From the NCBI GenBank assembly GCA_034439895.1, contig JAWXBF010000003.1, forward strand, positions 6,819-70,818: a DNA stretch of 64,000 nucleotides, in the 5' to 3' direction. Numbering within the stretch: position 1 is the first letter of the stretch; each line of letters begins with the position of its first letter. Under the pieces are notes generated by a model. That model made no database searches. It had not been told where the DNA came from and saw only the letters and a list, made by a program, of their open reading frames with translations. Shown in pieces: positions 2,744 to 64,000 of this stretch. The DNA comes from Deltaproteobacteria bacterium (GTDB lineage Bacteria > Myxococcota_A > Polyangia > Fen-1088). The position numbers and the translations under genes were made by a program.

Positions 2744-2767
2744 CGACTGAACCCAAAGGAAGTACCC

Positions 2768-3859: not shown

Positions 3860-3922
3860 GGTTCATCGAGCGCTTTTTGACGCCCATCCCACCGCGCCGT
3901 TACTTGCGGTACATTCACGCAG

Positions 3923-8771: not shown

Positions 8772-8886
8772 GTTGCACGGGGGTGACGGAGATCTTGCGT
8801 TTCGTTCTGTTTGGGATGATACGGTTCGATGGCAAACTGGTAGGTGACTCGGGTTACAAGTTGGCCGTGGCCTTGAGGTTGTCGCC

Positions 8887-10521: not shown

Positions 10522-10544
10522 CCGGGCTGAAACTAACCGAGTCT

Positions 10545-11225: not shown

Positions 11226-11295
11226 GCGTTACACTCTCACTTGAAAATTCGACCATTGATCCAGGTGGTCCCCACACTGCTGCCGTTCGGCTGAA

Positions 11296-12063: not shown

Positions 12064-13331
12064 CGCACACGACCCGACGCCAACTTTGGGGTGACGCTCC
12101 ACAACAGTTTTCTGACGCGTCTGTCGATGGGAAAGCGGGTGACCAAATGGCCAATGTGATTGGGTCGGTGTTGATAGCTGACGACGATCCGACGATTCTT
12201 CGTACACTCAAGCGGGCGTTGTCCGCGCTGGGATACGACGTGAGAACGGCAGACAATGGCAACGTGGCCGTGGAGGACACTCGCCAGTTTTCGTTCGACG
12301 CAATCATTGCCGACATCGATATGCCAGGCATGACAGGCATCGAGATGTTGAAGGCCGTTCGCGCGAGCGATCCCGATGTTCCCGTGTTGCTAATCACGGG
12401 CGATCCGGGTCTGGACACGGCCATGCGTGCCGTCCGATACGGCGCGTTTCGATACCTTCCGAAGCCCATCGAGATGGACGAGCTTGCCGAATCGCTGGCA
12501 TTTGCCGTTCAGGTTCACCGTTTGGCTCGCATCAAACGCGAGGCCCTGGCGCTGTTTGGCGAAAATGATCGTCAGGCCTCCGATCTTGCGGGACTCGAAC
12601 GCGATTTTGATTGCGCGATGTCTTCGATGTGGATGGCGTTTCAGCCGATCGTTTCGTGGCGCCAAAAGAAAATTATTGGATACGAAGCCTTGCTGCGCTC
12701 AGTTGAGCCGGCGTTGCCACATCCCGGCGCAATCCTCAGTGCTGCTGAACGACTCGATCGCATGCGTGAACTGGGCAACCGCGTGAGGGAGGCGTCTGCC
12801 GCGGAAATGACCGACCTTGCGCCCGATTTGACCGTGTTCGTGAATCTGGCGGCGCAAGATCTGGCAGACGAGTCGTTGTACTCAAATGTAGCACCCTTGT
12901 CGAAGGTGGCTTCGCGCGTGGTACTTGAAATCACCGAGCGCGTGAATCTCGATGGGATCTCGGATATCGAACGACGGATGTCCGCGTTGCGCGAGCTGGG
13001 CTTCCGCCTGGCGGTGGACGATCTCGGTGCCGGCTACGCAGGGCTCACAAGCTTCGTGAAGATTCGGCCGGATATCGTCAAGGTGGACATGAGTCTTGTG
13101 CGCAACATTCACCTGGACGCGGCCAAACGCAAGTTGGTGGGTGCTCTCATCGATCTCTCAACGAGCATGGGCATTCAAACCGTCATTGAGGGTATCGAGA
13201 ACGCCGATGAACTTGCCGTGGTGGTCGAGCTTGGCGCCGACCTGATGCAGGGCTTTCATTTCGCCGTTCCTGGCATTCCTTTCCCGACCGTTCCTCCCGC
13301 TCGTTTTGATCTGAAAAATTCCGAGAGCTGA
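12060..13331 (+). CDS. response regulator with EAL c-di-GMP phosphodiesterase domain (REC-EAL)
   Basis: REC (LIADDDP, IADIDMPGMTG, LLITG) and EAL catalytic residues (EALLR, FVNLA, EITER, DDLGAGYAG, KVD, EGIE, QGF) are all present. Confidence 0.9.
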   Translation: MTHTTRRQLWGDAPQQFSDASVDGKAGDQMANVIGSVLIADDDPTILRTLKRALSALGYDVRTADNGNVAVEDTRQFSFDAIIADIDMPGMTGIEMLKAVRASDPDVPVLLITGDPGLDTAMRAVRYGAFRYLPKPIEMDELAESLAFAVQVHRLARIKREALALFGENDRQASDLAGLERDFDCAMSSMWMAFQPIVSWRQKKIIGYEALLRSVEPALPHPGAILSAAERLDRMRELGNRVREASAAEMTDLAPDLTVFVNLAAQDLADESLYSNVAPLSKVASRVVLEITERVNLDGISDIERRMSALRELGFRLAVDDLGAGYAGLTSFVKIRPDIVKVDMSLVRNIHLDAAKRKLVGALIDLSTSMGIQTVIEGIENADELAVVVELGADLMQGFHFAVPGIPFPTVPPARFDLKNSES

Positions 13332-13335
13332 ACCC

Positions 13336-49207: not shown

Positions 49208-50239
49208 TCAGACCGCGATCTTGCGAAGACGCTCGACGAGCGTGGTGCGGTTCAAACCCAGAAGGGCAGCCGCTTCTGTTCGGTTTCCAGCCGTTCGCTC
49301 AAGCGCGGTACGAATGAACTTTTCCTCGACCGTATCGACCGCCTTGCGGAGATTGAGGTCGTTGGCTGCCGCTTCGGTTGTATCGTTCGTCGGAAAAGCC
49401 GAGTTCACGACCGCCATCACCGCGCGAATCGGACGCGCCTTTTTCCCGGAGAAACGAATATCCGCGGCCGTCAAAACGCCGCCGCGCTTCATGACGATGC
49501 TGCGCTCAATGGTATGCGCAAGCTCACGGACGTTGCCGCGCCAGGCGTGTTCTTTCAGAACGCGTTCCGCAGAGGCATCGAGTCCGGTTACCGAGCGTTG
49601 CAACCGGGCATTGGTCTCGGTCAGAAAGCGATGCGCCATCGGTGCGATGTCGTCGGCGCGTTCGCGCAATGCCGGCAAGTCGATCTGGATCACCGTCAAA
49701 CGGTAATACAAGTCGGCACGAAAGGTTCCCTCGTCGACCATTTGTTCGAGGTCGCGATTCGTCGCTGCGATCACGCGCACGTCGATGCGGATCTCCTTGT
49801 CAGCGCCAACCGGCGTGAGCATTCCGTCCTGCAAAACGCGAAGCAATTTCGCTTGCGCCTGCAGCGGCAGTTCGCCGATCTCGTCTAGAAAGAGCGTGCC
49901 GCCATCGGCTGACGCCAGGCGTCCTTCGCGGGCGGCGATGGCGCCGGTGAAAGCACCCTTCGTGTGTCCGAAAAGTTCGGCCTCGATTAGGCTGTCTGGA
50001 ATCGCAGCACAATTCAGGGGGACGAGTGCGCGGTTGGCTCGAGGTGAAGCGCCGTGAATCATGCGCGCGACAAGCTCTTTGCCGGTGCCGGTTTCGCCGG
50101 TGACCAACACCGTGCAGTCGGTGTCCGCCACGTTGCGCGCTTCGGTCAGCGATTCCAGGATGCGGGGATCGTCGCCAATGAACTCGGGCGCGAAGGCGAT
50201 GCGCCAGGTTTCAAGGTCAGCATTTGGATCCAACTTCAT
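49208..50239 (-). CDS. sigma-54-dependent transcriptional activator (AAA+ central domain plus Fis-type HTH) lacking any N-terminal receiver or sensor domain; probable flagellar master regulator (FleQ/FlrA-like, PspF-type architecture)
   Basis: Walker A GETGTGKE, the GAFTGA sigma-54 contact motif, Walker B and arginine finger, and a C-terminal HTH (AAALLGLNRTTLVERLRK). The AAA+ domain starts at about residue 25. Confidence 0.9.
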   Translation of the reverse strand: MKLDPNADLETWRIAFAPEFIGDDPRILESLTEARNVADTDCTVLVTGETGTGKELVARMIHGASPRANRALVPLNCAAIPDSLIEAELFGHTKGAFTGAIAAREGRLASADGGTLFLDEIGELPLQAQAKLLRVLQDGMLTPVGADKEIRIDVRVIAATNRDLEQMVDEGTFRADLYYRLTVIQIDLPALRERADDIAPMAHRFLTETNARLQRSVTGLDASAERVLKEHAWRGNVRELAHTIERSIVMKRGGVLTAADIRFSGKKARPIRAVMAVVNSAFPTNDTTEAAANDLNLRKAVDTVEEKFIRTALERTAGNRTEAAALLGLNRTTLVERLRKIAV

Positions 50240-50487
50240 CGAGACAAGGACATCGTCGGGGCCGTCGACCGAGTTGAGGATTTCTTGTGAGAAAACGTGA
50301 CGAATGAGTCATTAAAACATGTCTCTAGAAAGTCTCTCGGTGAACCCAGGCTAGCTCTCCATGGGTGACGGGTTTGGGCGGGAAAGAGAATGATCACGAG
50401 CCCGTACGGCAGGCGCTTTTATCAAAAAAATACGGTAAATTCATCGAAAAATGGCGGTGTCCCGGGTCGCTCTGTTCTTGTGGAAAA

Positions 50488-50527
50488 GGTGACAACTGTC
50501 AATGTGGCGTCACCCAGAGCAGGTGAC
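50488..50527. promoter_or_regulatory. GGTGAC repeats (GGTGAC-N15-GTCACC inverted pair plus a third GGTGAC) in the AT-richer divergent intergenic region
   Basis: GGTGACaactgtcaatgtggcGTCACCcagagcagGTGACacg, in the 428-bp region between the sigma-54 activator gene and the FHA gene. Confidence 0.3.
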
Positions 50528-50667
50528 ACGCAGCAGGTAAACAACGCGATGCGCTTTGCCTAATAACCCGAACGAGGTGTCATGGTTCCCGCGCTTTTTC
50601 ACACACATCGCATCAAGCAGTTCGGCCCAACTGTCGATGTCATAATTCGAGTGCAATCCAGCGGCCC

Positions 50668-51240
50668 ATGGCGATAAACCGAGTCCCACTCCGAGAGCTG
50701 CGACCGCCCACCTCGGGGGGCGGCGCTGCGCAGTATCTCGCTGATTTCATTGAAGATATGCGCAAGGGCGAGGTTAGCTTTGCGTACCAGTACCGCTGGC
50801 CGGCCATGATTGTCACGGGCCTCACCGGCACCTTGAGCGATCTCGGCAGCAGGACCGGGACCCTCGTCACCGACGATCACAGCGCCGATGTGCGCCTCGC
50901 GAGTCTGCTCGTCGGACGGGTGTTCCTGTTGCGCAAGAACGCCAACGCCCAGCCCGGTCAAATTCGGATAGGGCGGGTTGCTGAAAACGACGTTCCCATT
51001 CCCGAGTTTTCGATATCAAAGCATCACTGTCTTTTACGACCTGCGCCAAATCGTACCACGATCGAAGACATGGGCTCGACCAACGGATCTCTCGTCAACG
51101 GAACGAAGCTGATTCCACACCAGCAGTATGCCGTCGAGGATGGCTCCGAAATCGTTCTCGGCCGTTTCGTCTTCCTCTTTTTCACCGCCCGTGGCTTCGT
51201 CGACTACGTCAAGCGTGAACTCGCCGACCTCTCGGCCTAG
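50668..51240 (+). CDS. FHA-domain protein
   Basis: A C-terminal FHA core (IRIGRVAENDVPIPEFSISKHHCLL...IEDMGSTNGSLVNGTKL...DGSEIVLG). Confidence 0.75.
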   Translation: MAINRVPLRELRPPTSGGGAAQYLADFIEDMRKGEVSFAYQYRWPAMIVTGLTGTLSDLGSRTGTLVTDDHSADVRLASLLVGRVFLLRKNANAQPGQIRIGRVAENDVPIPEFSISKHHCLLRPAPNRTTIEDMGSTNGSLVNGTKLIPHQQYAVEDGSEIVLGRFVFLFFTARGFVDYVKRELADLSA

Positions 51241-51251
51241 GAGAAGGTCGA

Positions 51252-52166
51252 ATGGCGAACGACAAGCCAGTCAGTTTGGACGATGTCCTCGCTCGGGTCG
51301 ACAACCTACCGACGATCTCCCATGTTGCAATTCGCGTTGGTGAACTTGTCAACGATCCCAAAATGGGTGCACGCGAGATCTCGAAGGTCATGACTCAGGA
51401 TCCGAGCCTGAGTGCCAAGGTGCTCAAGCTTGTCAATTCGTCCTACTATGCCATTCCGGGCGGCGTGACCGACGTGGAACGCGCGATTTCGTTTATCGGA
51501 TTCAATGCGCTCTATCAGCTGGTTTTGACCGTTTCGGTGTTTCGCGCGTTGAAGACACCGGGCGGTGCCACGTTTGATGCTCGAGGCCTTTGGCTTCACT
51601 CGTTGGCCGTGGGATCGTGTTCGGAAGCACTCGCCCGGCGGATCGGGCATCCCGATCCCAGTACATGCTTCACGGCGGGACTGCTACATGACTTCGGAAA
51701 AATCGCGCTCGCGAAAGCCGAGGGAGAGCGTTTTGCGATGGCGCTCGACAGCGCCCGTCGCGATGGTGTGCCCATGCACATTGCCGAGGCCGAGGTGGGT
51801 TTGCCACCGCACGAGCGCGTGGGCAGTCGTCTCGCCAAGCGGTGGCGTTTTCCGGCGACGCTTCTGATACCGATCGAAAACCACCACAAGAGGCACCACC
51901 AGAGCGTACGTCGCGATCTCTCCACGCCACTGCTGGGTATGCTCGACATCGTCTCGCTTGCAGACGACGTGTGTCGTTTCCACGCGATTGGCGACAGCGG
52001 TTCACCCAAGCCCGAAGCACCGGATGCGGATGCGCTGGACGCTCTCGGCATGACAACGCTGTCGCTTGATGGCATCTACACGGACTTGATGCGCGTCCTC
52101 GAGAAATCGCGTACCTTCCTCGCCCTCATCGACGAGCCTACCGCCAAGTTGGACAAGCTCGGCTAG
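51252..52166 (+). CDS. HDOD-domain protein
   Basis: AKVLKLVNSSYYAIPGGVTDVERAISFIGFNAL...CFTAGLLHDFGKIAL. Confidence 0.8.
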   Translation: MANDKPVSLDDVLARVDNLPTISHVAIRVGELVNDPKMGAREISKVMTQDPSLSAKVLKLVNSSYYAIPGGVTDVERAISFIGFNALYQLVLTVSVFRALKTPGGATFDARGLWLHSLAVGSCSEALARRIGHPDPSTCFTAGLLHDFGKIALAKAEGERFAMALDSARRDGVPMHIAEAEVGLPPHERVGSRLAKRWRFPATLLIPIENHHKRHHQSVRRDLSTPLLGMLDIVSLADDVCRFHAIGDSGSPKPEAPDADALDALGMTTLSLDGIYTDLMRVLEKSRTFLALIDEPTAKLDKLG

Positions 52167-52181: not shown

Positions 52182-53642
52182 TTACTCGGGCTCGCTTGTC
52201 ATCGTTCGCGGCAAGGTCACGACAAAACACGCACCACGATTCGCATGTTTGGCGTACGAGATCGTGCCTTGATGGTCTTTCAGAATCTGCGCCGAGATCG
52301 CAAGGCCAAGACCGCAGCCAGTCCCCGCTGATTTTGAGGTGACATAGGGCTCGAAGAGGTGGTCGATGATGTCGGGAGCAACCCCGGGTCCGTCGTCGAT
52401 GACCTGGACCGATACTGTTTTTGCTGTGGTCTCCACGCTCACGTCGATGGTGCTTCCGTCTGGAGTCGCCTCCCCGGCGTTTCGTATGACGTTGACGAGA
52501 ACCTGCGTCAGCAGCGTCGCATCGCCAACGACCAGGGCTTTGGGCAACCGCGCTATCTGAATCGAGCGACGCTTGCGCGTGTGAATTCTGCAGATCGAGA
52601 CCGCCGAGGCCACCAAATCGGCAACACGACACTGCACCGGGTTTTCCTCACCGGAATGGATGTAGTTGCGCAACGAACGGTACAAGTTGACAAGGCGTTG
52701 CGAACTTTCGATTGCCCCGGCCATGCTTTCCTGCAAATCCGCGTCGCCACCACTTTCAATCGTGGGCGCAAGATCCCCAACGCAGAGTTGAACGTTCTGC
52801 ACGAGCGATGCCAGCTCGTGGGTAATGGAGGCCGTCATCGCACCCAGCGTCGCACGACGATTTAAACCGAAGAGCTGTGCGCGTGCCACTGGGTCGGCGA
52901 GCGCCAACTTGATCACGTTGGGGGCGCCGTTGTCTCCCGACCAGCGCGCCGCCCGTTGAATGAGAAACACGGTTATCGCGTGACTGGTGGCACCAAATCC
53001 ACTCGCCAGCGTTCTAACTTTGCCGTCACTTGTCATCGCCTGGTCAATCCGCCAGTCGGATCCATTTGATCCACCGCTCGGTTGCCCGAAGCCCGCGAGG
53101 GTATGGCTTTGTCCGTCCACGAGCATCGATACGGAAAGTCCGTGGACCTCTCGGATGGTGCGCGCTCGCTCAGCTAAAATTTTCGAGATCTCCACCAAGC
53201 CCTCGGCGCTCGCAAATTGATCGTCTATTCCCGCGGTATCGAGCAGGCTATCGAACGAGGCAGACATGTTGCGAATGCGCTCCCGGTGTTCCAGCGCCCT
53301 TCGCAAGGTCACATCGAGGGCATCGTGCCATGGTTTACCGATCTTGAAAGGTGCTCCGAATCCCATGGTGGCTTTGCGGGCATCTTCGTCGAGGTGACCC
53401 GTCAACATGATCCGGATCGTCTCGGGATTGCACCGACGGGCCGCGTCGAGAACCTGCACGCCGTTGATTTCCGGCATTCGCAAGTCGGCAACCACCGCGT
53501 CGTAAGGCGTTTGGCGCAAACGTTCAATCGCTTCTTTGCCGCTCGACACCGCCTCGACGTCAAAGCTCGCGGCGAGCTCATCGTGTATCGATTCCAGAAC
53601 GTCGATGTCATCGTCGACAACCAATATTCGTTCACGCGGCAT
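52182..53642 (-). CDS. hybrid response-regulator/histidine kinase (N-terminal REC, central GAF-like region, HisKA, HATPase)
   Basis: REC (ILVVDDDIDV, VVADLRMPEINGVQ, IMLTGH); H-box MTASITHELASLVQNV; N box VNVIRNAGEA; DDGPGV; GTGCGLGLAISAQILKDHQG. The start is taken at the internal M (MPRERIL), giving an 11-bp overlap with the upstream PAS-HK. Confidence 0.8.
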   Translation of the reverse strand: MPRERILVVDDDIDVLESIHDELAASFDVEAVSSGKEAIERLRQTPYDAVVADLRMPEINGVQVLDAARRCNPETIRIMLTGHLDEDARKATMGFGAPFKIGKPWHDALDVTLRRALEHRERIRNMSASFDSLLDTAGIDDQFASAEGLVEISKILAERARTIREVHGLSVSMLVDGQSHTLAGFGQPSGGSNGSDWRIDQAMTSDGKVRTLASGFGATSHAITVFLIQRAARWSGDNGAPNVIKLALADPVARAQLFGLNRRATLGAMTASITHELASLVQNVQLCVGDLAPTIESGGDADLQESMAGAIESSQRLVNLYRSLRNYIHSGEENPVQCRVADLVASAVSICRIHTRKRRSIQIARLPKALVVGDATLLTQVLVNVIRNAGEATPDGSTIDVSVETTAKTVSVQVIDDGPGVAPDIIDHLFEPYVTSKSAGTGCGLGLAISAQILKDHQGTISYAKHANRGACFVVTLPRTMTSEPE

Positions 53643-54876
53643 GACTCTCCTTGGAGGGCAGTTGGATCTCGAAGCGGGCCCCGGTTTCACTCGGACAAAA
53701 TCTCACGTCGCCACCAGACTGACGCGCGAGGCGTCTTGCGGTGACGAGGCCAAGACCACTGCCGTCGGGCCGGGTTGTCACAAACGGCTCGAACAGTGCC
53801 TTGCGACGGTCGGGCGCAACGCCTTCCCCGCTGTCCTGCAGGGCCACCGTGATGCCAGCGTCCGACGCCGTTGCCTCGATTCGCAACTGGCCACCGGTTG
53901 GCATCGCGAGAACCGCGTTGTCGATGAGGTTCCACAAAATATGCTGGAAATCAGCGGCGGATGCCCATGCCGACGTTCCGTCCGCAATGTTCGTGGCGAC
54001 CTTGATGCCGTTCAAGCGCGGCTCGAAGAGTGCAATCGCAATGTCAATCTCCTTTCGAACGGCCAGAGTTTCCGGCTCCGACGCGATGTTGCCGCTGCGG
54101 TGGGCGCGCCTGACCGCCGCAATGATGGTCTCCATCCTCGAAGCGGTATCGGACCCCCGTTTCAAAAAACGTGAAGCGCCATCTTTGAGCTCGTCCGAGC
54201 CCTTTTCGCCAATCAATCGATCCAACTGTCGGTGTGCGCTGACGAGCGCCGCAAGCGGATTGTTCAGGCTGTGGGCGATGCCCGCCGACAGTTCGCCGAT
54301 GAGCGCGCGCCGACTGGCCTGTGACAGGCGTGTGCCCATCACCCTGAGTTCGTGGTTTTTCTCGGCCAGTTCACGGTTTCGCATTTCGAGATCGGATACC
54401 GCTTTTTCCAGCTCCGAATGAGCCGAAAAAAGGGCGAGATGCTTTGAGATGAGTTCACGTTCGAGCATCTGCCGCTCGGTGATGTCGCGGGCGATGCATG
54501 CGGCCAGCGGCCCCGTGTTACTGTGTTCGATATGCGCGACGGTCAAGGCAACCGTCACGGGGTAACCATCGATTCGAGCGATGGCTATTTCGTCGTGCAA
54601 GCCCTGACGTTCAATCACCCGTGTGGCACGTTCTCCAGCATCGCAATCATCACTCGGTAGAAACAAGCTGGCCGCAGGTTGGCCCACCAAGACAGCCATT
54701 GAGCTGCCAGTCAGATCCTCCAGCCGACTGTTGGCGCTAACGATGCGCATATCGGAACGCGATACGGCGAACGCAGCTTCGGACGTATGCTCGAAGAGCA
54801 ATCCGAAGATTTTCCTGTCGATATCGCGGATCGGCGCCGATGCGTGCGTTTGCATCCAGATTCTTGCTTCGGCCAT
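53632..54876 (-). CDS. PAS-domain sensor histidine kinase (cytoplasmic)
   Basis: An N-terminal PAS region, H-box SAGIAHSLNNPLAAL, N box WNLIDNAV, DSGEGV and GSGLGLVTARRLARQSGG. Confidence 0.8.
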   Translation of the reverse strand: MAEARIWMQTHASAPIRDIDRKIFGLLFEHTSEAAFAVSRSDMRIVSANSRLEDLTGSSMAVLVGQPAASLFLPSDDCDAGERATRVIERQGLHDEIAIARIDGYPVTVALTVAHIEHSNTGPLAACIARDITERQMLERELISKHLALFSAHSELEKAVSDLEMRNRELAEKNHELRVMGTRLSQASRRALIGELSAGIAHSLNNPLAALVSAHRQLDRLIGEKGSDELKDGASRFLKRGSDTASRMETIIAAVRRAHRSGNIASEPETLAVRKEIDIAIALFEPRLNGIKVATNIADGTSAWASAADFQHILWNLIDNAVLAMPTGGQLRIEATASDAGITVALQDSGEGVAPDRRKALFEPFVTTRPDGSGLGLVTARRLARQSGGDVRFCPSETGARFEIQLPSKESHAA

Positions 54877-54970
54877 GTATGGCGTTTCTGGAGGCCCGAA
54901 ATCTAGACCGTCGCCCCGGACGGGTGACAGCCGAAAGTCCCTTCAGTAACAAGCCCGGCAAGACGATTCC

Positions 54971-56545
54971 TTGGGGACGGTGAGGCGTAGTTTAGGCGAA
55001 GGAGAACCCGAAGAGACCACACAGACCGATGGTCCGGTCCTGGAGCGTGGGCGTTTGCGTTCCGATCGGCCCCGGCTGGTGGTCATCGGGGGGATTGCAA
55101 AGGGCCGACAATTTGCCATTGCCGACGACGGTGCCACGATCGGGCGTTCCTCAGAAGCGACGGTAACGATCGAGGATCGTCGGCTGTCACGGGTGCACGC
55201 CCGCATCGTGACGACGCGGCCCGGCACCTGGATTCTCGAAGACCTCGATAGTAAAAACGGCACGATCGTCAACGGTGAAGCCGTCAAACGCAAGACGCTT
55301 TCCTATGGTGACGAGATTCGCATCGGCGACTCGGCCTTGATCTTCACGCACCATAATCCTGTCGAAGAACAGATCTTTCAGCGCGAGCGGATGGAACTTT
55401 TGGGTCGTCTGGGTGCGGGCGTTGCGCATGACTTCAACAATTTGCTCAGTGCTGCACGTGCAAGCATCGAGTTTCTTGATTCGCTTCCGCCAAACTCCCG
55501 GATCGACGAACCCGATATCCTTGAATGCCGTCGCGACGCGCTGAGCGCGCTCTCGCAAGCCACGACCCTGTCTGCGCGTTTGCTTGGGATGAGCCGGCAA
55601 CAGGCCTATGTTCTCGGTCGCGTGGATGTTGCGGATCTTTGTCGAGATGCGGTCGATCTGTTAAAGCGCACCGTCACGCGATCGATCGCGATCGATTTGC
55701 AGACAGAGCCGAATCTGTTCACGATGGGTGATCGGGGTCAGTTGCATCAAGTGATCATGAATCTGGGCGTCAATGCGCGTGACGCCATGCCGGCGGGGGG
55801 CAAGTTGACGGTTTCTTGTCGACGCGGTAGCGCGCTTGACTATCCGGTTTCCGGTCGCACCGACGGTGACGTTGTGATTCTCAGCGTTTCAGATACTGGC
55901 CAGGGTATGGACGAGGAGACCCGGGAAAATGCCTTTGATCCCTTCTTCTCGACGAAAACCGACCGCGGCGGTACGGGACTTGGCCTCGCCACCGTGCTTG
56001 AGATCGTAAAGTACCACGGCGGTTCGATTGACCTACAATCCGAGCTTGCCAAAGGAACAATGTTTCGCATCTTCCTACCGGCGCCACAAGATGTCGTCGC
56101 TACGGGTCGTGACACGTATGCCGAGTTGCCGTCCCTTGATCGGGCTCGCAGCATCAGCTCGGAATCCATGGTGCGGACGGCTCTTGTGGTGGACGACAAT
56201 CCCGTGATGCGCAGAAGCCTCGCTCGCCTCTTGAAGGCGCAGGGTTTTGAGGTGACGCTTGCCACCAACGGGCAGGAAGGTGTCGAGAGGTTCAGTGAAA
56301 GTCGTCCCGACTTCGTGCTACTCGATTTCGATCTGCCAATTCTGTCGGGTGCCAAGGTTTTTGAACGGCTGCGAACGCTCGATCCCGATATTCCAATCAT
56401 CCTCATGTCGGGTCACGCGACCGCGACGATCGAGCGCATGTCGCAGTGGTTCGGTGATCCGCCACTGTTTCTGCAAAAGCCTTATGGCGCACAGGATCTG
56501 CGCAATGCCATCAGCGAAGTTCTTACCCGAAAAGGTCGGGGATGA
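54971..56545 (+). CDS. FHA-domain / histidine kinase / receiver hybrid (FHA-HisKA-HATPase-REC)
   Basis: FHA (ATIGRSSEATVTIEDRRLSRVHARI...EDLDSKNGTIVNGE...YGDEIRIG); H-box GAGVAHDFNNLLSA; N box MNLGVNARDA; DTGQGM; GGTGLGLATVLEIVKYHGG; C-terminal REC (ALVVDDNPVM, VLLDFDLPILSG, IILMSGH). Confidence 0.85.
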   Translation: MGTVRRSLGEGEPEETTQTDGPVLERGRLRSDRPRLVVIGGIAKGRQFAIADDGATIGRSSEATVTIEDRRLSRVHARIVTTRPGTWILEDLDSKNGTIVNGEAVKRKTLSYGDEIRIGDSALIFTHHNPVEEQIFQRERMELLGRLGAGVAHDFNNLLSAARASIEFLDSLPPNSRIDEPDILECRRDALSALSQATTLSARLLGMSRQQAYVLGRVDVADLCRDAVDLLKRTVTRSIAIDLQTEPNLFTMGDRGQLHQVIMNLGVNARDAMPAGGKLTVSCRRGSALDYPVSGRTDGDVVILSVSDTGQGMDEETRENAFDPFFSTKTDRGGTGLGLATVLEIVKYHGGSIDLQSELAKGTMFRIFLPAPQDVVATGRDTYAELPSLDRARSISSESMVRTALVVDDNPVMRRSLARLLKAQGFEVTLATNGQEGVERFSESRPDFVLLDFDLPILSGAKVFERLRTLDPDIPIILMSGHATATIERMSQWFGDPPLFLQKPYGAQDLRNAISEVLTRKGRG

Positions 56546-58599
56546 CTGCACCCACTGGCAGCGGCGGAATGCAACCTGACGCCGGACCCGCAGGGCTTTT
56601 TGGCAGTCAGGTTGGGCCGTATCGAATCCGTTCGTTGCTAGGCGAAGGCGGCATGGGGGTTGTGTATCTCGCCGAGCACGAGCTGATCGGTCGAAAAGCG
56701 GCGATCAAGATGTTGGCGGCGGACGTGGCCGGCGATTCAGAGGCCGTGTCACGTTTCTTCCTGGAAGCGCGCACGGTCAATCAGATAAGGCACCCCAATA
56801 TCGTTGATGTGACGGATCTCGGACATCACGACACTCAGCCGTACATCGTGATGGAGTATCTCGAGGGCGAAACATTGGCCGATCGCCTGAAGCGGGCGGG
56901 GCCGATGGATTCAACCGTCGCATTGAAAGTCACGCGACAGGTGGCGTCTGCCCTTGGTGCGGTCCATGAGCATGGACTGGTTCATCGCGATCTCAAGCCC
57001 GCCAATATTTTCATATGCGCCCATCCGGATTACCCCGACTTCACGAAGGTTCTTGATTTCGGGATCGCGAAGCTTGTCTCGGTCCATGAAGACGTTGGCC
57101 ACAAGACCCGCGCCGGTGCGTTGTTGGGAACACCGCAATACATGTCACCCGAGCAATGTTTGGGTCAAAGGGATATTGATCCGCGCAGTGACATCTACTC
57201 GCTTGGTGTTGTTTTGTACGCCATGCTGACGGGACGGTTGCCGTTCGCCAATCGTCCGTTTGGCCAGTTGATTGTGGCGCATGTGATGGAGGTACCTGCG
57301 TCACCGCATCAAGTGAATTCGGGGGTTGCCCCCGTCTTGAGTGCACTCGTGATGAAAATGCTCGAAAAGCGACGCGAAGAACGGCCTGCGAACATGTTCG
57401 TCTTGCGTGATTCGATTGATTCCTTGCTGGGCATAGAACACGAAATTCCGGGCGTCCCTATCATGTCGCTCGGCAGCGATGGCACCGGTCCCATTGGTCT
57501 TGCGGCGGCCGCCTTTGCCGATGAAGGCCATACCGCCGAAATGCGGGCGCGGTTGCTGGCAGTCAATCTCGAAGCCACCGAGACCTCCGCAGGAAGTTTC
57601 CGAGACGAAGATTTCGATTCCGATACTTCTGGCTCGCCCGGTACACCTGAACCGACTTCGGCCGTAGTCGGTGGTGCCAGCCGTGCACTTCCCGATCACG
57701 CGACGCTTGTGGAACGGGTTGGTGACTTCATCGACGAACGTCTCGCCGTCGAAAAGATACCCTTGCCGGTGCTGTCGCGGGCATCGGCGCAATGCCTCGA
57801 ACTGATGCGCTTGCCGGGCTTTTCGTTTGCGGATCTTTCCGAGGCCATGATGCGTGAACCGAACCTCGCTCGCCGAATCGTTGCACAAGCGAATCGAGTG
57901 GTGGGTAGCGCATCCACTCAGCGCGTGGTCGGCATCGCGCAGGCGGTTCGTCGGATTGGCGCTGCCGGCCTGCAGCGGACTCTGGTCGAAATGGCAGCTC
58001 GTCCGGCGTTCTGTCCACCGAATTCTCGTTTTGCCCAGGCACTCAAGCGTCCCTGGCACCATGCAATTGCAACCGCGCTGCTGGCGGAACGCATAGGCTC
58101 AAATGCGCAACTGCCGCAGCTTCAACCCATCACGGAATCGCTCTACATCGCGGGCCTCTTGCACTCGATCGGGCGTTGCGTCCTGACGAATTTCCTCTTG
58201 ACCAGTGAACGCCGGATCGCCCGACGCTATGATCTACCCCGTTTACCCTGGGCAGCCTTGCTCGACGCTGCGGATGCCGCGTCGATTCGCGTTTCGGTTG
58301 CCGTCGCACGGGGTTGGAACTTGCCCGAGGACGTCGTGGGTATGTTGGCATCGTGTGGCCTGGTTGGAAGTCGAACCGACAATGGCGCCGCGGCTCCTGC
58401 GGCTGCGGTGGTACTCCGCCTCGCACACGGGATTGCACTTCGCGAAGGGTTCGTGCTTCGTGACGAGGACAAATCCGGTGTATCGAACGACATTCGCGCG
58501 AGCCGAATGCGTCTTGGCCTCGATGAATCCGTGATCGATCGAATGCTTTTCGATCTCCAGAATCACGTGGCTCGACTCGCACGCACGCGCGGCGAGTGA
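56542..58599 (+). CDS. Ser/Thr protein kinase (Hanks type) fused to a C-terminal HDOD domain
   Basis: Kinase motifs (GEGGMGVVYLAEH, AIKML, HRDLKPANIF, DFGIAK, TPQYMSPEQ). A long linker leads to an HDOD domain (IVAQANRVVGSAS...IAGLLHSIGRCVL). The start overlaps the stop of the previous gene (ATGA). Confidence 0.85.
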   Translation: MTAPTGSGGMQPDAGPAGLFGSQVGPYRIRSLLGEGGMGVVYLAEHELIGRKAAIKMLAADVAGDSEAVSRFFLEARTVNQIRHPNIVDVTDLGHHDTQPYIVMEYLEGETLADRLKRAGPMDSTVALKVTRQVASALGAVHEHGLVHRDLKPANIFICAHPDYPDFTKVLDFGIAKLVSVHEDVGHKTRAGALLGTPQYMSPEQCLGQRDIDPRSDIYSLGVVLYAMLTGRLPFANRPFGQLIVAHVMEVPASPHQVNSGVAPVLSALVMKMLEKRREERPANMFVLRDSIDSLLGIEHEIPGVPIMSLGSDGTGPIGLAAAAFADEGHTAEMRARLLAVNLEATETSAGSFRDEDFDSDTSGSPGTPEPTSAVVGGASRALPDHATLVERVGDFIDERLAVEKIPLPVLSRASAQCLELMRLPGFSFADLSEAMMREPNLARRIVAQANRVVGSASTQRVVGIAQAVRRIGAAGLQRTLVEMAARPAFCPPNSRFAQALKRPWHHAIATALLAERIGSNAQLPQLQPITESLYIAGLLHSIGRCVLTNFLLTSERRIARRYDLPRLPWAALLDAADAASIRVSVAVARGWNLPEDVVGMLASCGLVGSRTDNGAAAPAAAVVLRLAHGIALREGFVLRDEDKSGVSNDIRASRMRLGLDESVIDRMLFDLQNHVARLARTRGE

Positions 58600-58616
58600 G
58601 CTACCGGGGAATTGAC

Positions 58617-59117
58617 CTACTGAACGACGAACTCAGCGAAGTACAGATGGCTGATGGCCCCGCCACCAAGTGCCTTGTCAATGCGGGCAAGGATCGCTTC
58701 GCCAATCGTATTTTTGCCGCTCTCGCCGAGGGTATCGGCGACCGCCAAGCTTGACAGGTATCGCAATATGTCATCCCGGATGGCGACTTTTTTGGTTTCC
58801 AATTTGGCCTTTGCCCCGTCGTTTCGCAGCTCCAGATCAAACTTCGCCTTGAGATAGCGGGCGCGCCCCTGTTCGTTCAGGTTCACGACGAAGGGATCAA
58901 GGGTAACCATGGGCTTGATCTCGGATTCAGGCCCGGGCCCGTGGTCCTTGGGCAACGATTTCTCCACCTCGGTCACCTTGTGTGAAATCCCCATCGTCTG
59001 AACCACGATGAAAGCCGAAACTGCGATGTTTACGATGCCCAAAATCATCCCAAGTTTGGAGCCACCTGCTTTGGGGACGGCGTCTGATGGTGTTTCTGCT
59101 TTTTTTTCTTCGGACAT
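58617..59117 (-). CDS. fliL: flagellar basal-body-associated protein FliL
   Basis: A single N-terminal TM and a FliL core (TLDPFVVNLNEQGRARYLKAKFDLEL...ILRYLSS). Confidence 0.8.
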   Translation of the reverse strand: MSEEKKAETPSDAVPKAGGSKLGMILGIVNIAVSAFIVVQTMGISHKVTEVEKSLPKDHGPGPESEIKPMVTLDPFVVNLNEQGRARYLKAKFDLELRNDGAKAKLETKKVAIRDDILRYLSSLAVADTLGESGKNTIGEAILARIDKALGGGAISHLYFAEFVVQ

Positions 59118-59175: not shown

Positions 59176-60690
59176 CTATCCGGCTGCACTGATTGGCGCC
59201 ACAATCGGATCGGCCGCGCAAACGCGATTGCGGCCAGACTCCTTTGCCCGGTACATCGCGGCGTCGGCTGCGGCAATCAGGGCCGGAATCGAAACCGTTT
59301 GACCTGCGCCGACCGTGGCGCAACCGAAGGATGCCGTCAAGGGAATGGGCGTTCCGTCTTGCGTTTGAACGGTGAGCTGCGAAACCCGCTCTCGTACCCG
59401 TTCTGCGACGATGAGGGCGCCCGGCGTCGGCGTTTCGGGCAACACCACCACGAACTCTTCACCGCCCCAGCGGGCCGGGAGATCGCGCGGGCGGAAGTTC
59501 TTCAAGAGAAGTCCACCGATCGCTTTCAGGACCGCATCGCCGACGAGGTGTCCGTGTTTGTCGTTGACCTTTTTGAAGTGATCCACGTCCACCATGATGA
59601 TGCTCAGCGGCGTTTTGGTGATGCGCGCTTTGGTCAGCTCGTGTTCAATGAACGTCTCGAACCGATTGCGATTGGCCAACCCAGTCAAGAGATCAGTTAC
59701 CGACTTTCCCTCGGCTTTTTCAGCCCGATCGGTCAGCGAGAGCATCGTTTCGGTCATCTGGATTTCGGTCGAAACAGCAGATAGCAGGAGGGCCTCGCGG
59801 GCTTCTTCCAGGATCTCGTCGATGGTTTCTTGCGAGTCCATCGGTGCTTCGAGCAGCGTGAACAACTCGCCCATTGTGTCGTGTACCCTGGCGAGCAACT
59901 CGTCAAACTTTTCGTCCGTCAAGTTGAGAATCTTTGAGGCGAACGCCCGTGCGTGCCGTGTGGGCAACGCGCGATCAGGCGCCAGCCAGATGTCGGTGAC
60001 GTGGTTTGCGGTCGCGACGATGCGCGAGAGCGTCACCACGCTGGGCTCCGTCTTGTCGTCCGTGATCCCGAACTTGTGACTGTGGGCAATGATCATTGCG
60101 AACTGGGCAGGCAGTCTCCATTTTTCAGCGAGCCAGGCGCCCACTTCGGCGTGATCCGAGCCGAATAACTCCGTTTCCTGCGCGCTCAATTCGCCATGGT
60201 TGTGAATGGATTTCTCAAGGATCGCGCCGTACGTCGGCTCAATCGTTGCCAGGGTCAAGATGCCGATATCCTGCATCAATCCCGCCAAGAAGGCCTCTTC
60301 CAGATCGCGAACTCCGACCAGGGCAGCGAGGTGCCGCGAAACGAGCCCCGACAAAGCAGATCGTTTCCAGTACGCGCGAAACCAGGGCGTTTGAGCTGCC
60401 TTGACCGTCCGTGCAAGCGTAAATGACAGCGCCATGGCGCGCAAGGAGTTGAGCCCCAGCATCGCAACGGCGTGTGATACGGTTGTGACCTCGCGGCGAA
60501 CGCCTAGCATGGGCGAGTTGGCCATCTTGAGAACCTTGGCGGACAGGGCGGCGTCCGTCGTGATGGTGGACACCACGTCGCGAACGTTGGGTTCCGCTTT
60601 TTGGCATTGCTCGAGCACCTTCATGGTGACCGCGGGCAACGTGGGCATACTCTTGGCCTGGGTGAGTCTCGTTTGTAGTGCCGGATCCAT
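59176..60690 (-). CDS. HDOD-GGDEF protein (diguanylate cyclase with an N-terminal HDOD domain)
   Basis: HDOD (AKVLKMANSPMLGVRREVTTVSHAVAMLG...AGLMQDIG). GGDEF with an I-site (RPRD-LPARW-GGEEF) and the preceding DVDHFKKVND. Confidence 0.85.
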   Translation of the reverse strand: MDPALQTRLTQAKSMPTLPAVTMKVLEQCQKAEPNVRDVVSTITTDAALSAKVLKMANSPMLGVRREVTTVSHAVAMLGLNSLRAMALSFTLARTVKAAQTPWFRAYWKRSALSGLVSRHLAALVGVRDLEEAFLAGLMQDIGILTLATIEPTYGAILEKSIHNHGELSAQETELFGSDHAEVGAWLAEKWRLPAQFAMIIAHSHKFGITDDKTEPSVVTLSRIVATANHVTDIWLAPDRALPTRHARAFASKILNLTDEKFDELLARVHDTMGELFTLLEAPMDSQETIDEILEEAREALLLSAVSTEIQMTETMLSLTDRAEKAEGKSVTDLLTGLANRNRFETFIEHELTKARITKTPLSIIMVDVDHFKKVNDKHGHLVGDAVLKAIGGLLLKNFRPRDLPARWGGEEFVVVLPETPTPGALIVAERVRERVSQLTVQTQDGTPIPLTASFGCATVGAGQTVSIPALIAAADAAMYRAKESGRNRVCAADPIVAPISAAG

Positions 60691-60769
60691 GACGCTTCGA
60701 CGTCAGTCCATCGACAGCTCGATGTCAGTTCTTGAGCGCCCGGGAGTCCTTGACTCGTTGCATGCAACG

Positions 60770-62128
60770 TTACCCGTGATCGTGGTTTTTGCGGACATTT
60801 CCCGACGGCGGCGCCGGCGCAACGATCCCGTCATTCTTCATGCGCACGGGATCGGCCAGCGTGGCGACCGAACCTGGCGGATGCGGGTACCACCCGGCTT
60901 TGTCGGCGGCGTCTGCCCGCTCTCGCACCTTCAAGAGCGTGAACATGCCACCCATATCTATGTAGCTGAAGGGTCCCGCTCCACCCCGCATTGGCAAGCT
61001 GTTTGGTGGAATGTCCATTTCCATCTCGGCCATGTTGCCCATTCCGGTTGTGCCCATCGTCATGTACCGGGGCACCACACGGTCCATGCGAGCGTCGAGT
61101 TTCGCGGTGTTCGCCCCGAGCATCGGCGGCAACCCGTGTCCCATCTGTGTCATCACGTGATGGGTCATGTGGCAATGCATCGCCCAGTCGCCGAGTTCCT
61201 CGGGCACAAATTCGATCACGCGTGTGCTACCGGTGGGAATCAGAACGGTGGTGTCCGGATGTTGGGCCGATTCGGGAATGTATCCGCCGTCGGTCGCCGT
61301 CGTCTTGAACGACAACCCGTGCAAGTGCACCGGATGATGGTCCATCGGACTCAGGTTGCCGAATCGAATGCGAACCCGTTCGCCCCGTCCAACCACAAGC
61401 GGTGCGGTCCCCGGGAAAGACTTGCTGTTGAAGGTCAGGACGTTGAAGTCTTTCATTTCGCTCGGATTCGGACGGCGCGCCCCGACGTCGACGCGAAACT
61501 CGTGCGTCATGAGCACAAAGTCTCGATCAACCCGCGGTCCGCGCGGCCGGCGCGGATGAACGATGAGCATCCCCGTCATCCCCAGCGCGATCTGGGTCAT
61601 CTCATCGAAGTGCGGATGGTACATGTACGTTCCGGGGTGTCGCACCGTGAATTCGTACATGTAGGTTTCACCCGGTTCGATGGGCGACTGGGTCAGCCCC
61701 GCCACGCCATCCATGCCGTTGGGTAGTACGATTCCGTGCCAGTGTACCGACGTGGGTTCCGGCAAACGGTTGCTGACATAAAGGCGGAGTCTGTCGCCCT
61801 CGACCGCCTCGATCGTTGGGCCGGGCGTGCTGCCATTGTATCCCCAGCACAGAGCCCGAAGACCCGGTGCAAATTCGTGGTCGACTTCCTCGGCCACGAG
61901 GTGACCCACCTTGACGCCATTGACGACCCGCAGGGGTAGGGTAGCCCCATTGGGCGTCTGCACGGCGATCTGTCCGCCGGGCGCGACGATGGGCGCCTTC
62001 TCTGAAACGTGTGACGGTTCAAGCGGCGCCGCGGCCGCAATCGCCTTGGCCTCGGCTGGCGAAACCCGGGTGACGATGGCACCACACACGGCAGAGCCAC
62101 CCATGCCGAAAAAGTTGCGTCGATCCAT
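60770..62128 (-). CDS. TAT-exported multicopper oxidase (CopA/CueO-like)
   Basis: Twin-arginine signal RRNFFG; copper-site motifs HWHG, HPHF, HPVHLHG and HCHMTHH. The start is taken at MDRRNFF and overlaps the stop of the upstream efflux-factor gene. Confidence 0.85.
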   Translation of the reverse strand: MDRRNFFGMGGSAVCGAIVTRVSPAEAKAIAAAAPLEPSHVSEKAPIVAPGGQIAVQTPNGATLPLRVVNGVKVGHLVAEEVDHEFAPGLRALCWGYNGSTPGPTIEAVEGDRLRLYVSNRLPEPTSVHWHGIVLPNGMDGVAGLTQSPIEPGETYMYEFTVRHPGTYMYHPHFDEMTQIALGMTGMLIVHPRRPRGPRVDRDFVLMTHEFRVDVGARRPNPSEMKDFNVLTFNSKSFPGTAPLVVGRGERVRIRFGNLSPMDHHPVHLHGLSFKTTATDGGYIPESAQHPDTTVLIPTGSTRVIEFVPEELGDWAMHCHMTHHVMTQMGHGLPPMLGANTAKLDARMDRVVPRYMTMGTTGMGNMAEMEMDIPPNSLPMRGGAGPFSYIDMGGMFTLLKVRERADAADKAGWYPHPPGSVATLADPVRMKNDGIVAPAPPSGNVRKNHDHG

Positions 62129-62129
62129 C

Positions 62130-63620
62130 TCAGTGTCCTCCCCGGGATTCGCTTGCACTGTCGAGGGTCATCACGGATGTCCCTCCGCCGGGGTCAACGC
62201 GTTTGCCCGCCAAGATTGCCTCAAGTTCGGCGACTGCGCTCCAGTATTCTCGCAAGGTTTCGACCTCGGCGAGTTTGACCTCAAGGGCCTCCCGCCGGGC
62301 TTGCAGGATGTGGTAGATGCCAATCTGCATCGCGTTGTATTGCAAAAGGGTTTGCTCAGTCACGCGCTCCAGGGCCGGTACGATGATTTGCTGATAGTGG
62401 CGGGCACGCGCATGCGCCGATTCAACGCGGTTGCGCGCTTCGCGGGCGGCCGAACGCAGATCGATCGCCATGCCGTAGTACCGTTCCATCAGCGCATCAA
62501 ACTCGGCGTCGAGCGCCGCAGTTGTTCCCTGTCGTCGATTGAAAAGCGGAACTCCGACGCTGACACCCGCACCGAATGCCCAGTTGGGATCGCCCCTTCC
62601 GGTTGCATCGGCCTCGGGATTGCCCCTTAGCCCGTGGGCATCGATCGCGATGTCTGGAAGCCAGCCCTCGGTGCGAGCAACACCGGTTCGGCGCGCAAGG
62701 CTTTCGAGCCGATGTCGCGTCTCCGACAGCTCAAGGCTCGCGCGCAGCGCCCGTGTTTCAAGCTCGGCCGGTGTGTTTGATTTATCCGGGACGGCCCCAA
62801 GTTCTGTTGCTACGCGCCACTGCGCATCGGCACCGTGGGTTCCCAGCAACCGTTGCACGCGTTCGCGTTCGGTGGCGACTTCAAGCGCAAGCTGCGCCAC
62901 GATGATTCGGCCGCGCTCAAACGCGGCTTCTTGATTGGCAAGGTCGAGCGCAGGGATGTTGCCCGCGGATGCCATGGCGCGCGCCGCATCCCGAGCCGCG
63001 GCAGAGCCATCCAGTACTTGCTGCGCGATGCGGAGGCGCTGTTGAGCGGATTGCAACCGGTAAAAGCCGACGCGAACGCGATACCCAACGTCGATTACAG
63101 CCGCTGCGGCGCGAAGCCGTGCGGCTTCGACCTCGGGGCGTGCGGCATTTGAACGTCGCGGGGCAAGCAAGAAAGACGTGAGATCCAATTCCACCCGTAC
63201 CTCCATCGCGGTGTTGCGTTCGGGCAGCAGCTCAACCTCGGCAACTGGGTTCGGAAGCAAACCCGCCTGAAGCAAGTGCCCGCGTGCGATGCCAACGTCG
63301 CGTAGGGTCGCACGCAGTTCACGGTTGTTGAGCAATGCCACCCGGACGGCGCCATTGGCATCAAGCGCCTGTTGCGACACGGCATGGGCGCCCGGGACCG
63401 ACGCGGAATCGGCTTCGTTCAGGCCGTCCCAACCTTCGGTCGACTCGCCCGGCAAGGGCGGTTCTTCCGTCAACGAACGCGTCGTCCGGACCGCGGCACC
63501 TTCCGGGGAGTCAGGCGAAGCGGCCGAGTTGTCTGGAAAGTGATCGGGGACGCTCCGCGTGGCACAGCCGGATACCAGCACGACTGCAAACAAAAATTTG
63601 AAGTTCAAACGCAAATTCAT
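62130..63620 (-). CDS. outer-membrane efflux factor (TolC/CusC/CzcC family) lipoprotein
   Basis: Lipobox LVSGCA; OMF N-terminal repeat motif (VRVALLNNRELRA...ARGHLLQAGLLPNP) and a second repeat. Size ~500 aa. Confidence 0.8.
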   Translation of the reverse strand: MNLRLNFKFLFAVVLVSGCATRSVPDHFPDNSAASPDSPEGAAVRTTRSLTEEPPLPGESTEGWDGLNEADSASVPGAHAVSQQALDANGAVRVALLNNRELRATLRDVGIARGHLLQAGLLPNPVAEVELLPERNTAMEVRVELDLTSFLLAPRRSNAARPEVEAARLRAAAAVIDVGYRVRVGFYRLQSAQQRLRIAQQVLDGSAAARDAARAMASAGNIPALDLANQEAAFERGRIIVAQLALEVATERERVQRLLGTHGADAQWRVATELGAVPDKSNTPAELETRALRASLELSETRHRLESLARRTGVARTEGWLPDIAIDAHGLRGNPEADATGRGDPNWAFGAGVSVGVPLFNRRQGTTAALDAEFDALMERYYGMAIDLRSAAREARNRVESAHARARHYQQIIVPALERVTEQTLLQYNAMQIGIYHILQARREALEVKLAEVETLREYWSAVAELEAILAGKRVDPGGGTSVMTLDSASESRGGH

Positions 63621-64000
63621 GACACTCGTATTATCTAGGCCCATACGGGAAGATCGTGACAGAAAAATTCAGCAAACAGTGGATTCCGAGATCGAGCAGC
63701 TGAGTCCCGACACCTGTTCGATGAGCGAGTTGCTCGGCAGCGCCACCAACACCTGATATGAATATCGGGTGTTTCGAGTTGCAGCCGTTCTTGGCAAAAG
63801 TTGGCGGTCGGCCGGCGTGTTCGCGCTTTCGATTCTCGGCGTCCTTTGGTTCCATCATATGGTGGCTGCGCGCGAGCCGACGACAACCTGGTTGCTGTGG
63901 GATCTGCTGCGGCTGTGGTCCTGGCAAGTGGTGCTTTCAAGCGCCTGTCTTTGTGCCGGCTACCGTGTTCTGAGTTGGCTAGACGATCCTGCTCGACCGG

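Follow-up and report, generated by a model that had tools for sequence, protein, structure and literature searches.

Crosstalk between Ser/Thr and His-Asp phospho-signalling in bacteria is poorly understood in its mechanism. The one studied kinase that bears an FHA domain, EspA of Myxococcus xanthus, carries other sensor domains, presumably PAS, that complicate its analysis. Here we describe a gene in a 64,000-nucleotide stretch of a Deltaproteobacteria bacterium genome (contig JAWXBF010000003.1; hereafter, the window), which encodes an FHA domain followed by a DHp-CA kinase core and a receiver (REC) domain. The product is a soluble hybrid histidine kinase (HK) with FHA as its sole input domain. 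We propose that this protein is an active hybrid kinase whose activity or placement probably depends on FHA binding to phosphothreonine (pThr) written by a Hanks-type kinase, followed by transfer from H153 to D452.

EspA (NCBIfam NF052573, 'serine histidine kinase EspA') has the same N-terminal FHA domain, CckA-like core and C-terminal receiver. When the window protein is aligned to the EspA model, its FHA domain (residues 43-132) matches positions 36-126 (E 3.3e-16) and its core (residues 135-515) matches positions 375-747. The whole-model score of 168 bits against a cut-off of 1400 shows that it is not an EspA ortholog. Around 250 model positions (~127-374) lie between FHA and core in EspA, a region that we take to be two PAS domains (FHA-PAS-PAS-HK-REC), whereas only ~2 residues separate the matched stretches in the window protein. 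The setting also differs, being flagellar and cyclic di-GMP (c-di-GMP) related here and developmental timing for EspA in M. xanthus. EspA, an orphan hybrid kinase, phosphorylates the receiver that it carries itself; a link to the Ser/Thr kinase (STK) PktA5 and an interaction with a Ser/Thr kinase complex are reported (PMC4320627).

The best solved match to the window DHp-CA is CckA of Caulobacter and Brucella (5idj), likewise a hybrid kinase with a C-terminal receiver. The CckA models NF046020 and NF046026 score 235.5 and 201.5 bits against cut-offs of 1000, so the window protein is not a CckA ortholog either. These models are matched only at positions 458-867 (Brucella) and 287-646 (Caulobacter) with nothing before, and the unmatched N-terminal region of CckA is presumably where its transmembrane and PAS input lies. 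The Y and W in the ATVYGIVKQSDGWI segment of CckA, which we take to be c-di-GMP contacts, are replaced by L343 and S352 in the window protein. Judged by these substitutions, CckA-style control by c-di-GMP is doubtful.

Several FHA proteins bind a pThr located in their own sequence. In Chk2, a tail pThr is bound by the FHA domain. MDC1 is described as having an FHA domain that binds pThr in its own N-terminal region (PMC3351156). DgcB of Bdellovibrio bacteriovorus (Bd0742, FHA-GGDEF; 6hbz/6hc0) shares with the window protein a disordered tail of ~30 residues, an FHA domain, a short linker and a dimeric catalytic output, and its FHA domain binds pT14 of its own tail, 18 residues before the FHA domain (PMC6733907). 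The output of DgcB is a diguanylate cyclase and its linker is partly disordered, whereas the window protein is a histidine kinase with a continuous predicted helix, and tail phosphorylation is a proposal for the window protein. GarA and OdhI of Actinobacteria contain a canonical FHA domain (E ~1e-8 to the window FHA) and a tail with an acidic-Thr-Thr motif, which is phosphorylated by an STK and then bound by the protein's own FHA domain (in part after PMC12189002). These two proteins have no catalytic output domain. Because their tails do not align with the window tail, this resemblance is one of analogy rather than homology.

An FHA domain joined to a CckA-type kinase core

A Pfam profile scan of the window open reading frames (ORFs; reporting level E<=0.01) places an FHA domain (PF00498) at residues 56-119 with an E-value of 4.8e-18 (65.8 bits, cut-off 20.7). 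In the AlphaFold2 (AF2) model, built from a 32-sequence family alignment with a mean pLDDT of 75, residues 34-127 form an eleven-stranded beta-sandwich (block pLDDT 77-92). The pThr-contacting residues are all present (G58 R59; S73 R74 V75 H76; S94 K95 N96 G97 T98). To follow their conservation we used 140 sequences, comprising 139 family representatives and the window protein at a mutual identity of <=50%. G58, R59 and S73 are conserved in 140/140 and H76 and N96 in 139/140; overall, the pThr-contacting residues are kept in 138-140 of the set, with T98 lower at 127. The nearest solved FHA sequences are GarA/OdhI, FhaA, Rv1747, EmbR and DgcB, all experimentally established pThr readers, and they align over exactly the pThr-binding residues. 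FHA domains are described as pThr-specific (PMC3146460). The N-terminal region is a canonical FHA domain with intact predicted pThr-binding residues.

An earlier note on this DNA, made from the letters alone, had placed an FHA domain N-terminal to a complete hybrid kinase, and the Pfam FHA match, the CckA-type DHp-CA and the Response_reg match confirm that layout. The Gly-Arg, Ser-x-x-His and Asn-Gly signatures to which it pointed are all there (G58 R59, S73/H76, N96 G97) and conserved in 139-140 of the 140 sequences. It had named lost binding residues or a non-FHA fold as grounds for giving up the assignment; the residues are intact and the predicted fold is a beta-sandwich.

The kinase core follows without interruption. 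Pfam assigns HATPase_c to residues 253-372 (E 5.9e-24) and Response_reg to residues 405-514 (E 2.1e-21), and makes no HisKA (PF00512) call in the FHA kinase at E<=0.01. The DHp is present despite this missing call, since residues 137-371, GVAHDFNNLL included, align end to end with the solved CckA DHp-CA (5idj, E 2e-32). Some family members carry a precomputed PF00512 match and most lack one, and any count of architectures that relies on Pfam calls alone will miss complete kinases of the FHA-DHp-CA-REC family.

The H-box reads H153-D-F-N-N157 (AHDFNN) and is of the HDFNN type, as the earlier note had said. The note had called this type common in deltaproteobacterial hybrid kinases, but it is not particular to that group. 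The pattern G[VI]AHDFNN recovers at least 600 stretches, and the 80 loci kept come from Gemmatimonadota, Acidobacteriota, Verrucomicrobiota, Actinomycetota, Alphaproteobacteria and others, so that HDFNN occurs across many phyla as a general CckA-type feature. The N (N264, N268), G1 (D308, G310, G312), F (F322, F325) and G2 (G336, G338) boxes of the CA domain are present and invariant or nearly so. The receiver has the expected D408, D409, D452, S480 and K503. H153, N157, D308, G310, G312 and D452 are conserved in 140/140 sequences and K503 in 137/140. With all catalytic residues intact, the hybrid kinase is predicted to be catalytically competent. The FHA residues, H153 and D452 are conserved jointly, which argues that selection acts jointly on pThr binding and on His and Asp phosphorylation.

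The AF2 model orders the protein as a tail (residues 1-31), the FHA strands (34-127), a long helix (130-170), a second helix (181-208), an alpha/beta CA domain (216-370), a linker (375-399) and the receiver (402-520). Each predicted helix can be assigned to DHp, CA or REC, with no sign of a membrane segment. When the full model was compared with the PDB using Foldseek, the matches listed were histidine kinases only, with no FHA-kinase fusion among them. The ORF has the boundaries given by the earlier note and encodes 524 aa when counted from TTG at 54971. However, the true start is likely GTG at 54980, giving 521 aa, because a stop codon immediately precedes the equivalent codon in an 88% identical relative, an in-frame TAA lies eight codons upstream of TTG 54971 in the window, and the 521-aa form is deposited as MDZ4693590.1.

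Family size, the FHA-DHp junction and the Thr-rich tail

The earlier note had called the architecture unusual, which is not borne out. We searched 1.84 billion cluster representatives (50% identity) with HMMER and examined the best 150. About 138 of these are proteins of 480-560 aa with a single match running from FHA through receiver. The end of this best-150 list still scored 520 bits, and the family therefore comprises at least ~138 clusters at 50% identity. A search of 90%-identity clusters gave 49 clusters of FHA-DHp-CA-REC architecture. The named family members all come from 'Deltaproteobacteria', Myxococcales, Polyangiales or Myxococcota metagenome-assembled genomes (MAGs), and a profile-pattern scan of genome contigs, keyed on the generic kinase core, has two family loci (L006 and L007) among its matches listed. 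With EspA as a studied precedent, the combination of FHA and hybrid kinase is not in itself new, and Myxococcota-type genomes commonly encode it. What is new is an FHA domain that is the sole input and is fused directly to the DHp. The family thus offers a minimal case (soluble, ~510 residues, and here with a candidate writer in the same operon) and a clean in vitro system for pThr gating of a histidine kinase. The family is valuable for its tractability and its size rather than for any surprise.

The connection between the two modules is fixed in length. Two residues after the last FHA strand (121-127), the AF2 model shows the unbroken helix 130-170 that bears H153. The spacing from G119 to H153 is 35 residues in 112 of the 140 sequences and 34 in the other 28, and conservation across the family covers the junction F-T-H-H-(D/N)-P-x-E-E-Q as well as the helix after it. 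Such an invariant helical connection would be superfluous in a mere tether but is expected of an FHA domain that acts as an input domain and signals through a coiled coil.

The tail in front of the FHA domain is rich in Thr. Its EETTQTDGPV segment is identical in the 93% and 88% identical relatives, and the spacing from T17 to R35 is 18 residues, as from pT14 to V32 in DgcB. We compared 125 family tails with 1000 composition-preserving shuffles. Thr makes up 10.8% of the tails and 5.7% of the remaining protein, and 121 tails contain at least one. TT occurs in 47 tails, compared with 30.6 +/- 4.2 in the shuffles, a count reached by none of the 1000, and [DE]TT occurs in 16, compared with 5.9 (reached by 1/1000). 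The Ser controls SS and [DE]SS show no such excess. Hydrophobic residues are over-represented at T+1 (1.47x) and T+3 (1.59x). This Thr-specific signal is suggestive because FHA domains read pThr and not pSer, and it suggests that the tails may serve as a DgcB/Chk2-like self-ligand for their own FHA domain. A fixed tail Thr at -18 was considered and rejected: it appeared in 17/30 among 32 sequences in which one clade is dominant, and is dispersed in the 140 representatives.

A candidate writer and the proposed route from Thr to Asp

The downstream STK-HDOD translation shows the G-loop, AIK, HRD, DFG and GTPxYMSPE motifs, and the window encodes no other Hanks kinase domain (tblastn gave no further kinase-domain match). 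To judge from the sequence, the ATGA overlap between the two genes is a translational coupling of FHA kinase and STK-HDOD. A promoter and terminator scan of 54700-58900 returned 0 promoter-like sites, with terminator-like sites under the shuffle mean. Two relatives, L086 (93% identical) and L087 (88% identical), are syntenic with the window over 10-11 kb, and the STK-HDOD adjoins the FHA kinase in the window and in these two only. This operon is good evidence for a functional STK/FHA-kinase pair in the window's lineage, where STK-HDOD is the candidate pThr writer. In L087 (3707-5764) the kinase gene is called as two pieces of 69 and 582 aa, while tblastn aligns the kinase domain continuously from 3767; the split call could reflect an in-frame stop, a sequencing error or a pseudogene.

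Outside this lineage the linkage is not conserved. No kinase domain was found in the visible flanks of L001, L002/3, L006, L007, L088 and L089 by gene calls and tblastn, nor in those of the P0251 locus by gene calls. In L093, two unrelated Pkinase genes lie 1-4.4 kb upstream of the family member. Pkinase+HDOD is itself a large family, with this architecture in 120/120 best homologs, and STK-HDOD occurs without an adjoining FHA kinase in other genomes. One assembly, GCA_022184915.1, holds both families on separate contigs, and in L092 the STK-HDOD is followed by a small FHA-only protein and a sigma54 activator, not by an FHA kinase. Conserved linkage between the FHA protein and a neighbouring Hanks kinase is thus not a property of the whole family. 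The earlier note had taken the adjacent STK as the obvious writer. That stands insofar as the STK is real and shares an operon with the FHA kinase in the window, L086 and L087; it does not carry over to the seven lineages with no kinase nearby or to the unrelated kinases of L093.

On the route that we propose, a Hanks STK would write the pThr, this being the co-translated STK-HDOD in the window's lineage and an unlinked kinase elsewhere. The FHA domain would capture the mark, and its occupancy would re-pack the two FHA domains atop the dimeric helical bundle through the fixed-length joint to the H153 helix. This re-packing would switch the autokinase/phosphatase state of the kinase, and the phosphoryl group would move from H153 to D452 of the attached receiver. 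In the preferred version, the pThr would lie in the protein's own disordered tail (T16, T17 or T19), and the FHA domain would bind it in cis or across the dimer, on the pattern of DgcB, Chk2 and MDC1. We infer these phosphorylation and binding events, as well as which way the switch works and what it controls; the output is probably tied to the surrounding flagellar, sigma54 and c-di-GMP genes. The version that we favour, and only tentatively, is one in which the own tail serves as pThr ligand and the kinase is gated allosterically through the fixed junction. It is equally speculative that the family represents a self-contained Thr-to-His-to-Asp integrator, in which tail pThr is bound by the FHA domain of the same dimer (probably across protomers) and switches the DHp through the invariant helix. 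If this were so, the activation principle of Chk2, MDC1 and DgcB, in which a tail pThr staples the FHA domain, would extend to bacterial histidine kinases, and FHA would be a true allosteric sensor domain comparable to PAS. One STK-HDOD writer would then feed three readers (two paralogous FHA kinases, and a small FHA protein with its sigma54 activator) that control flagellar and c-di-GMP output.

Several points weigh against this proposal. The family is so far uncharacterised. A Pkinase gene lies within ~8 kb in only 2/9 independent lineages, and STK-HDOD only in that of the window; by rough estimate this frequency is not clearly above chance in the kinase-rich Myxococcota. Tail Thr occupancy in the 140 sequences peaks at -11 (33%) and is 16-20% at -22 to -18, with no single conserved position. 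The Thr residues of the window tail have D, T and P at +3, with no hydrophobic residue, and an abundance of S, T and P is common to disordered tails in general. Metagenomic gene calls also have unreliable N-termini, their start codons being uncertain. Homology of the tail to the ETTS site of GarA/OdhI was rejected, as the alignment sets T16 opposite GarA residue 37. FHA domains are rigid, which makes an allosteric route through the helix a conjecture. Lastly, the scan of 39 window ORFs gave no Hpt, PP2C phosphatase or dedicated response regulator adjoining the gene; the earlier note had advised looking for a cognate Hpt or response regulator, and no Hpt was found anywhere among these ORFs. A receiver protein (10545-11225) and a REC-GGDEF-EAL protein (13336-15345) are both encoded >40 kb from the FHA kinase gene.

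Docking without allostery would account for part of these data. The FHA domain may simply recruit a constitutively active phosphorelay to pThr on another protein, which could be the autophosphorylated STK-HDOD or its substrate, for example near the flagellar/c-di-GMP machinery. Recruitment is the commonest role of bacterial FHA domains; in PMC12189002, for instance, N-terminal autophosphorylation is said to give PknG a site that recruits GarA, and an interaction with FhaA is mentioned too. The FHA kinase gene shares an operon with the STK, whose Thr-rich linker (residues ~290-400) contains TETS and DTSGSPGTPEPTS stretches, and the presence of three FHA proteins and one kinase in the island fits one writer with several docked readers. 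However, a pure tether needs no length-invariant, sequence-conserved junction between FHA and acceptor helix, and recruitment gives no reason to expect Thr-specific motifs in the own tail. As a nearby kinase gene is also absent for most family members, we consider recruitment alone unlikely. The FHA domain might instead act independently of phosphorylation, as a dimerisation or protein-binding module, with the kinase adjacency an accident of one lineage. That adjacency is indeed confined to a single lineage, and there is precedent in GarA, whose FHA surface binds unphosphorylated enzymes. The DgcB FHA domain, moreover, is a stable dimer regardless of ligand and also binds the unphosphorylated tail (PMC6733907). 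Such a module is hard to reconcile with the near-invariance of GR, S-R-x-H and S-x-N-G-T over 140 sequences that are <=50% identical, or with the 4-base overlap with the kinase gene kept in L086 and the kinase gene directly 3' in L087 too, and we regard it as improbable.

The wiring could also run in reverse, with the histidine kinase and receiver controlling the STK-HDOD or the small FHA/sigma54 module while the FHA domain only holds the complex together, for example if the phosphorylated receiver bound HDOD. HDOD is encoded three times within 10 kb here and three times in tandem in L092, and no downstream Hpt or response regulator for the receiver was found among the 39 ORFs. Contacts between REC and HDOD are unsupported, though, FHA occupies the N-terminal position usual for histidine kinase input domains, and the STK-HDOD is found without an adjoining FHA kinase in other genomes. 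Of all the explanations weighed, we give this one the least credence.

A signalling island beside the flagellar genes

After the flagellar cluster, the genes run in the order sigma54 activator, small FHA, HDOD, REC-HK, PAS-HK, FHA kinase, STK-HDOD, FliL and HDOD-GGDEF (Table 1). The island contains three FHA proteins and one Hanks kinase. The third FHA protein is a second FHA-DHp-CA-REC paralog, P0003 (512 aa, 49% identity), found at 8001-9539 of locus L004. Bases 1-4349 of L004 are 99.98% identical to window positions 59652-64000, and the deposited accessions of FHA kinase, STK-HDOD and P0003 are MDZ4693590, ...591 and ...598. From this overlap and accession numbers that are 8 apart, P0003 (L004/L005) is a paralog of the same island and not an independent lineage. 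It corresponds to ~67652-69190 in window coordinates, ~3.65 kb past the window end and eight genes after the FHA kinase. Two large genes (769 and 484 aa) with no recorded Pfam match lie between an OEP gene and P0003 (L004 4166-7899).

Table 1 Features of the FHA kinase gene and its surroundings, in window coordinates.
Feature	Position	Strand	Basis
FHA-DHp-CA-REC hybrid histidine kinase gene	54971..56545	+	ORF, Pfam, CckA alignment
Disordered N-terminal tail (res 1-33)	54971..55069	+	AF2 pLDDT <50 at res 1-31; family tails Thr-rich
Thr cluster T16-T17-Q-T19 in E14-E-T-T-Q-T-D20	55016..55027	+	Candidate phospho-acceptor/FHA ligand; putative phosphorylation
FHA domain (res 34-127)	55070..55351	+	Pfam, AF2 beta-sandwich, residue conservation, GarA/OdhI/DgcB alignment
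Junction H128-N-P-V-E-E-Q and DHp helix 1 (res 130-170)	55352..55480	+	AF2, CckA alignment
Phospho-acceptor H153 codon, H-box AHDFNN	55427-55429	+	CckA DHp alignment; conservation
DHp helix 2 (res 181-208)	55511..55594	+	AF2; CckA alignment
CA (ATP-binding) domain (res 216-372)	55616..56086	+	Pfam HATPase_c; invariant columns
Disordered CA-REC linker (res 375-399)	56093..56167	+	AF2 pLDDT <50; variable in alignment
Receiver, REC (res 402-520)	56174..56530	+	Pfam Response_reg E 2.1e-21
Receiver phospho-acceptor D452 codon	56324-56326	+	Conserved 140/140
ATGA stop/start overlap, FHA kinase to STK-HDOD	56542..56545	+	Sequence; same 4-base overlap in L086
Hanks-type Ser/Thr kinase (res 27-286) and HDOD (res 408-602)	56542..58599	+	Pfam Pkinase 8.3e-51, HDOD 4e-20
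Sigma54 enhancer-binding protein without receiver or other N-terminal input, at flagellar-cluster edge	49208..50239	-	Pfam Sigma54_activat 1.4e-70
Small FHA-only protein, 190 aa, second candidate pThr reader	50668..51240	+	Pfam FHA 6.9e-19
Stand-alone HDOD protein	51252..52166	+	Pfam HDOD 1.1e-54
REC-HK (N-terminal receiver and kinase core)	52182..53690	-	Pfam
PAS-HisKA-HATPase kinase, divergent from FHA kinase	53632..54876	-	Pfam; arrangement conserved in L086, L087
FliL	58617..59117	-	Pfam FliL 1.4e-21
HDOD-GGDEF diguanylate cyclase	59176..60690	-	Pfam HDOD 7.4e-52, GGDEF 4.8e-47
Flagellar genes (FliD, flagellin, FlgJ-like, FlgI, FlgA, rod proteins (FlgF/G), FliA, FlhG-like ATPase, FlhA, FliO/N/M, FlgE, FliK, FliI, FliF)	~19-48 kb	mostly -	

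A trio made up of STK-HDOD, a small FHA protein (~190 aa, with a conserved non-FHA N-terminal half) and an input-less sigma54 activator occurs at flagellar loci of two lineages, at 49208-51240 in the window and at 6001-9852 in L092. The small FHA protein has an ortholog (40% identity, E 4e-41) directly 3' of STK-HDOD in L092, and the window sigma54 activator is 52% identical to the enhancer-binding protein encoded after the small FHA gene there. The L092 locus is flanked by three HDOD genes, a PAS-HK-REC gene and fliE/fliF. What is conserved thus appears to be a flagellar-locus core of STK-HDOD, small FHA protein and sigma54 activator, and the FHA kinases look like additional readers recruited to the island in the window's lineage. 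The trio looks like the FHA-containing enhancer-binding proteins of M. xanthus in split form, and on that reading flagellar transcription would be under the control of Ser/Thr phosphorylation.

The complete flagellar regulon spans 19258-47890, mostly on the - strand. The closest relatives of the signalling proteins of this genome are labelled Myxococcales, Polyangiales or Deltaproteobacteria MAGs, and the cultured members of the groups so labelled are not known to be flagellated. The listed ORFs of PAS-HK and REC-HK overlap by 59 bases (53632-53690). The ATG of M18 (~53639) is more likely the REC-HK start, which leaves a short overlap typical of translational coupling. By analogy with EspA and EspC, REC-HK is a possible phosphotransfer partner of the FHA kinase (PMC4320627).

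HDOD recurs across these loci. Within a 10-kb part of the window it is encoded as a stand-alone protein (51252-52166), fused to the kinase (57763-58347) and in the GGDEF-fused protein (59176-60690), and the three tandem HDOD genes of L092 lie at 807-3997. Pairing of FHA and HDOD genes is seen twice in the island, the small FHA gene with the HDOD gene and the FHA kinase with STK-HDOD. In L093 (3639-10188), the two Pkinase genes upstream of the family member P0300 are convergent and lack HDOD, and a gene of the His_Phos_1 phosphatase family lies immediately downstream. A further two-component/c-di-GMP set is found in the window at 8887-15345, where a histidine kinase (8887-10521) precedes the distant receiver protein and the REC-GGDEF-EAL protein.

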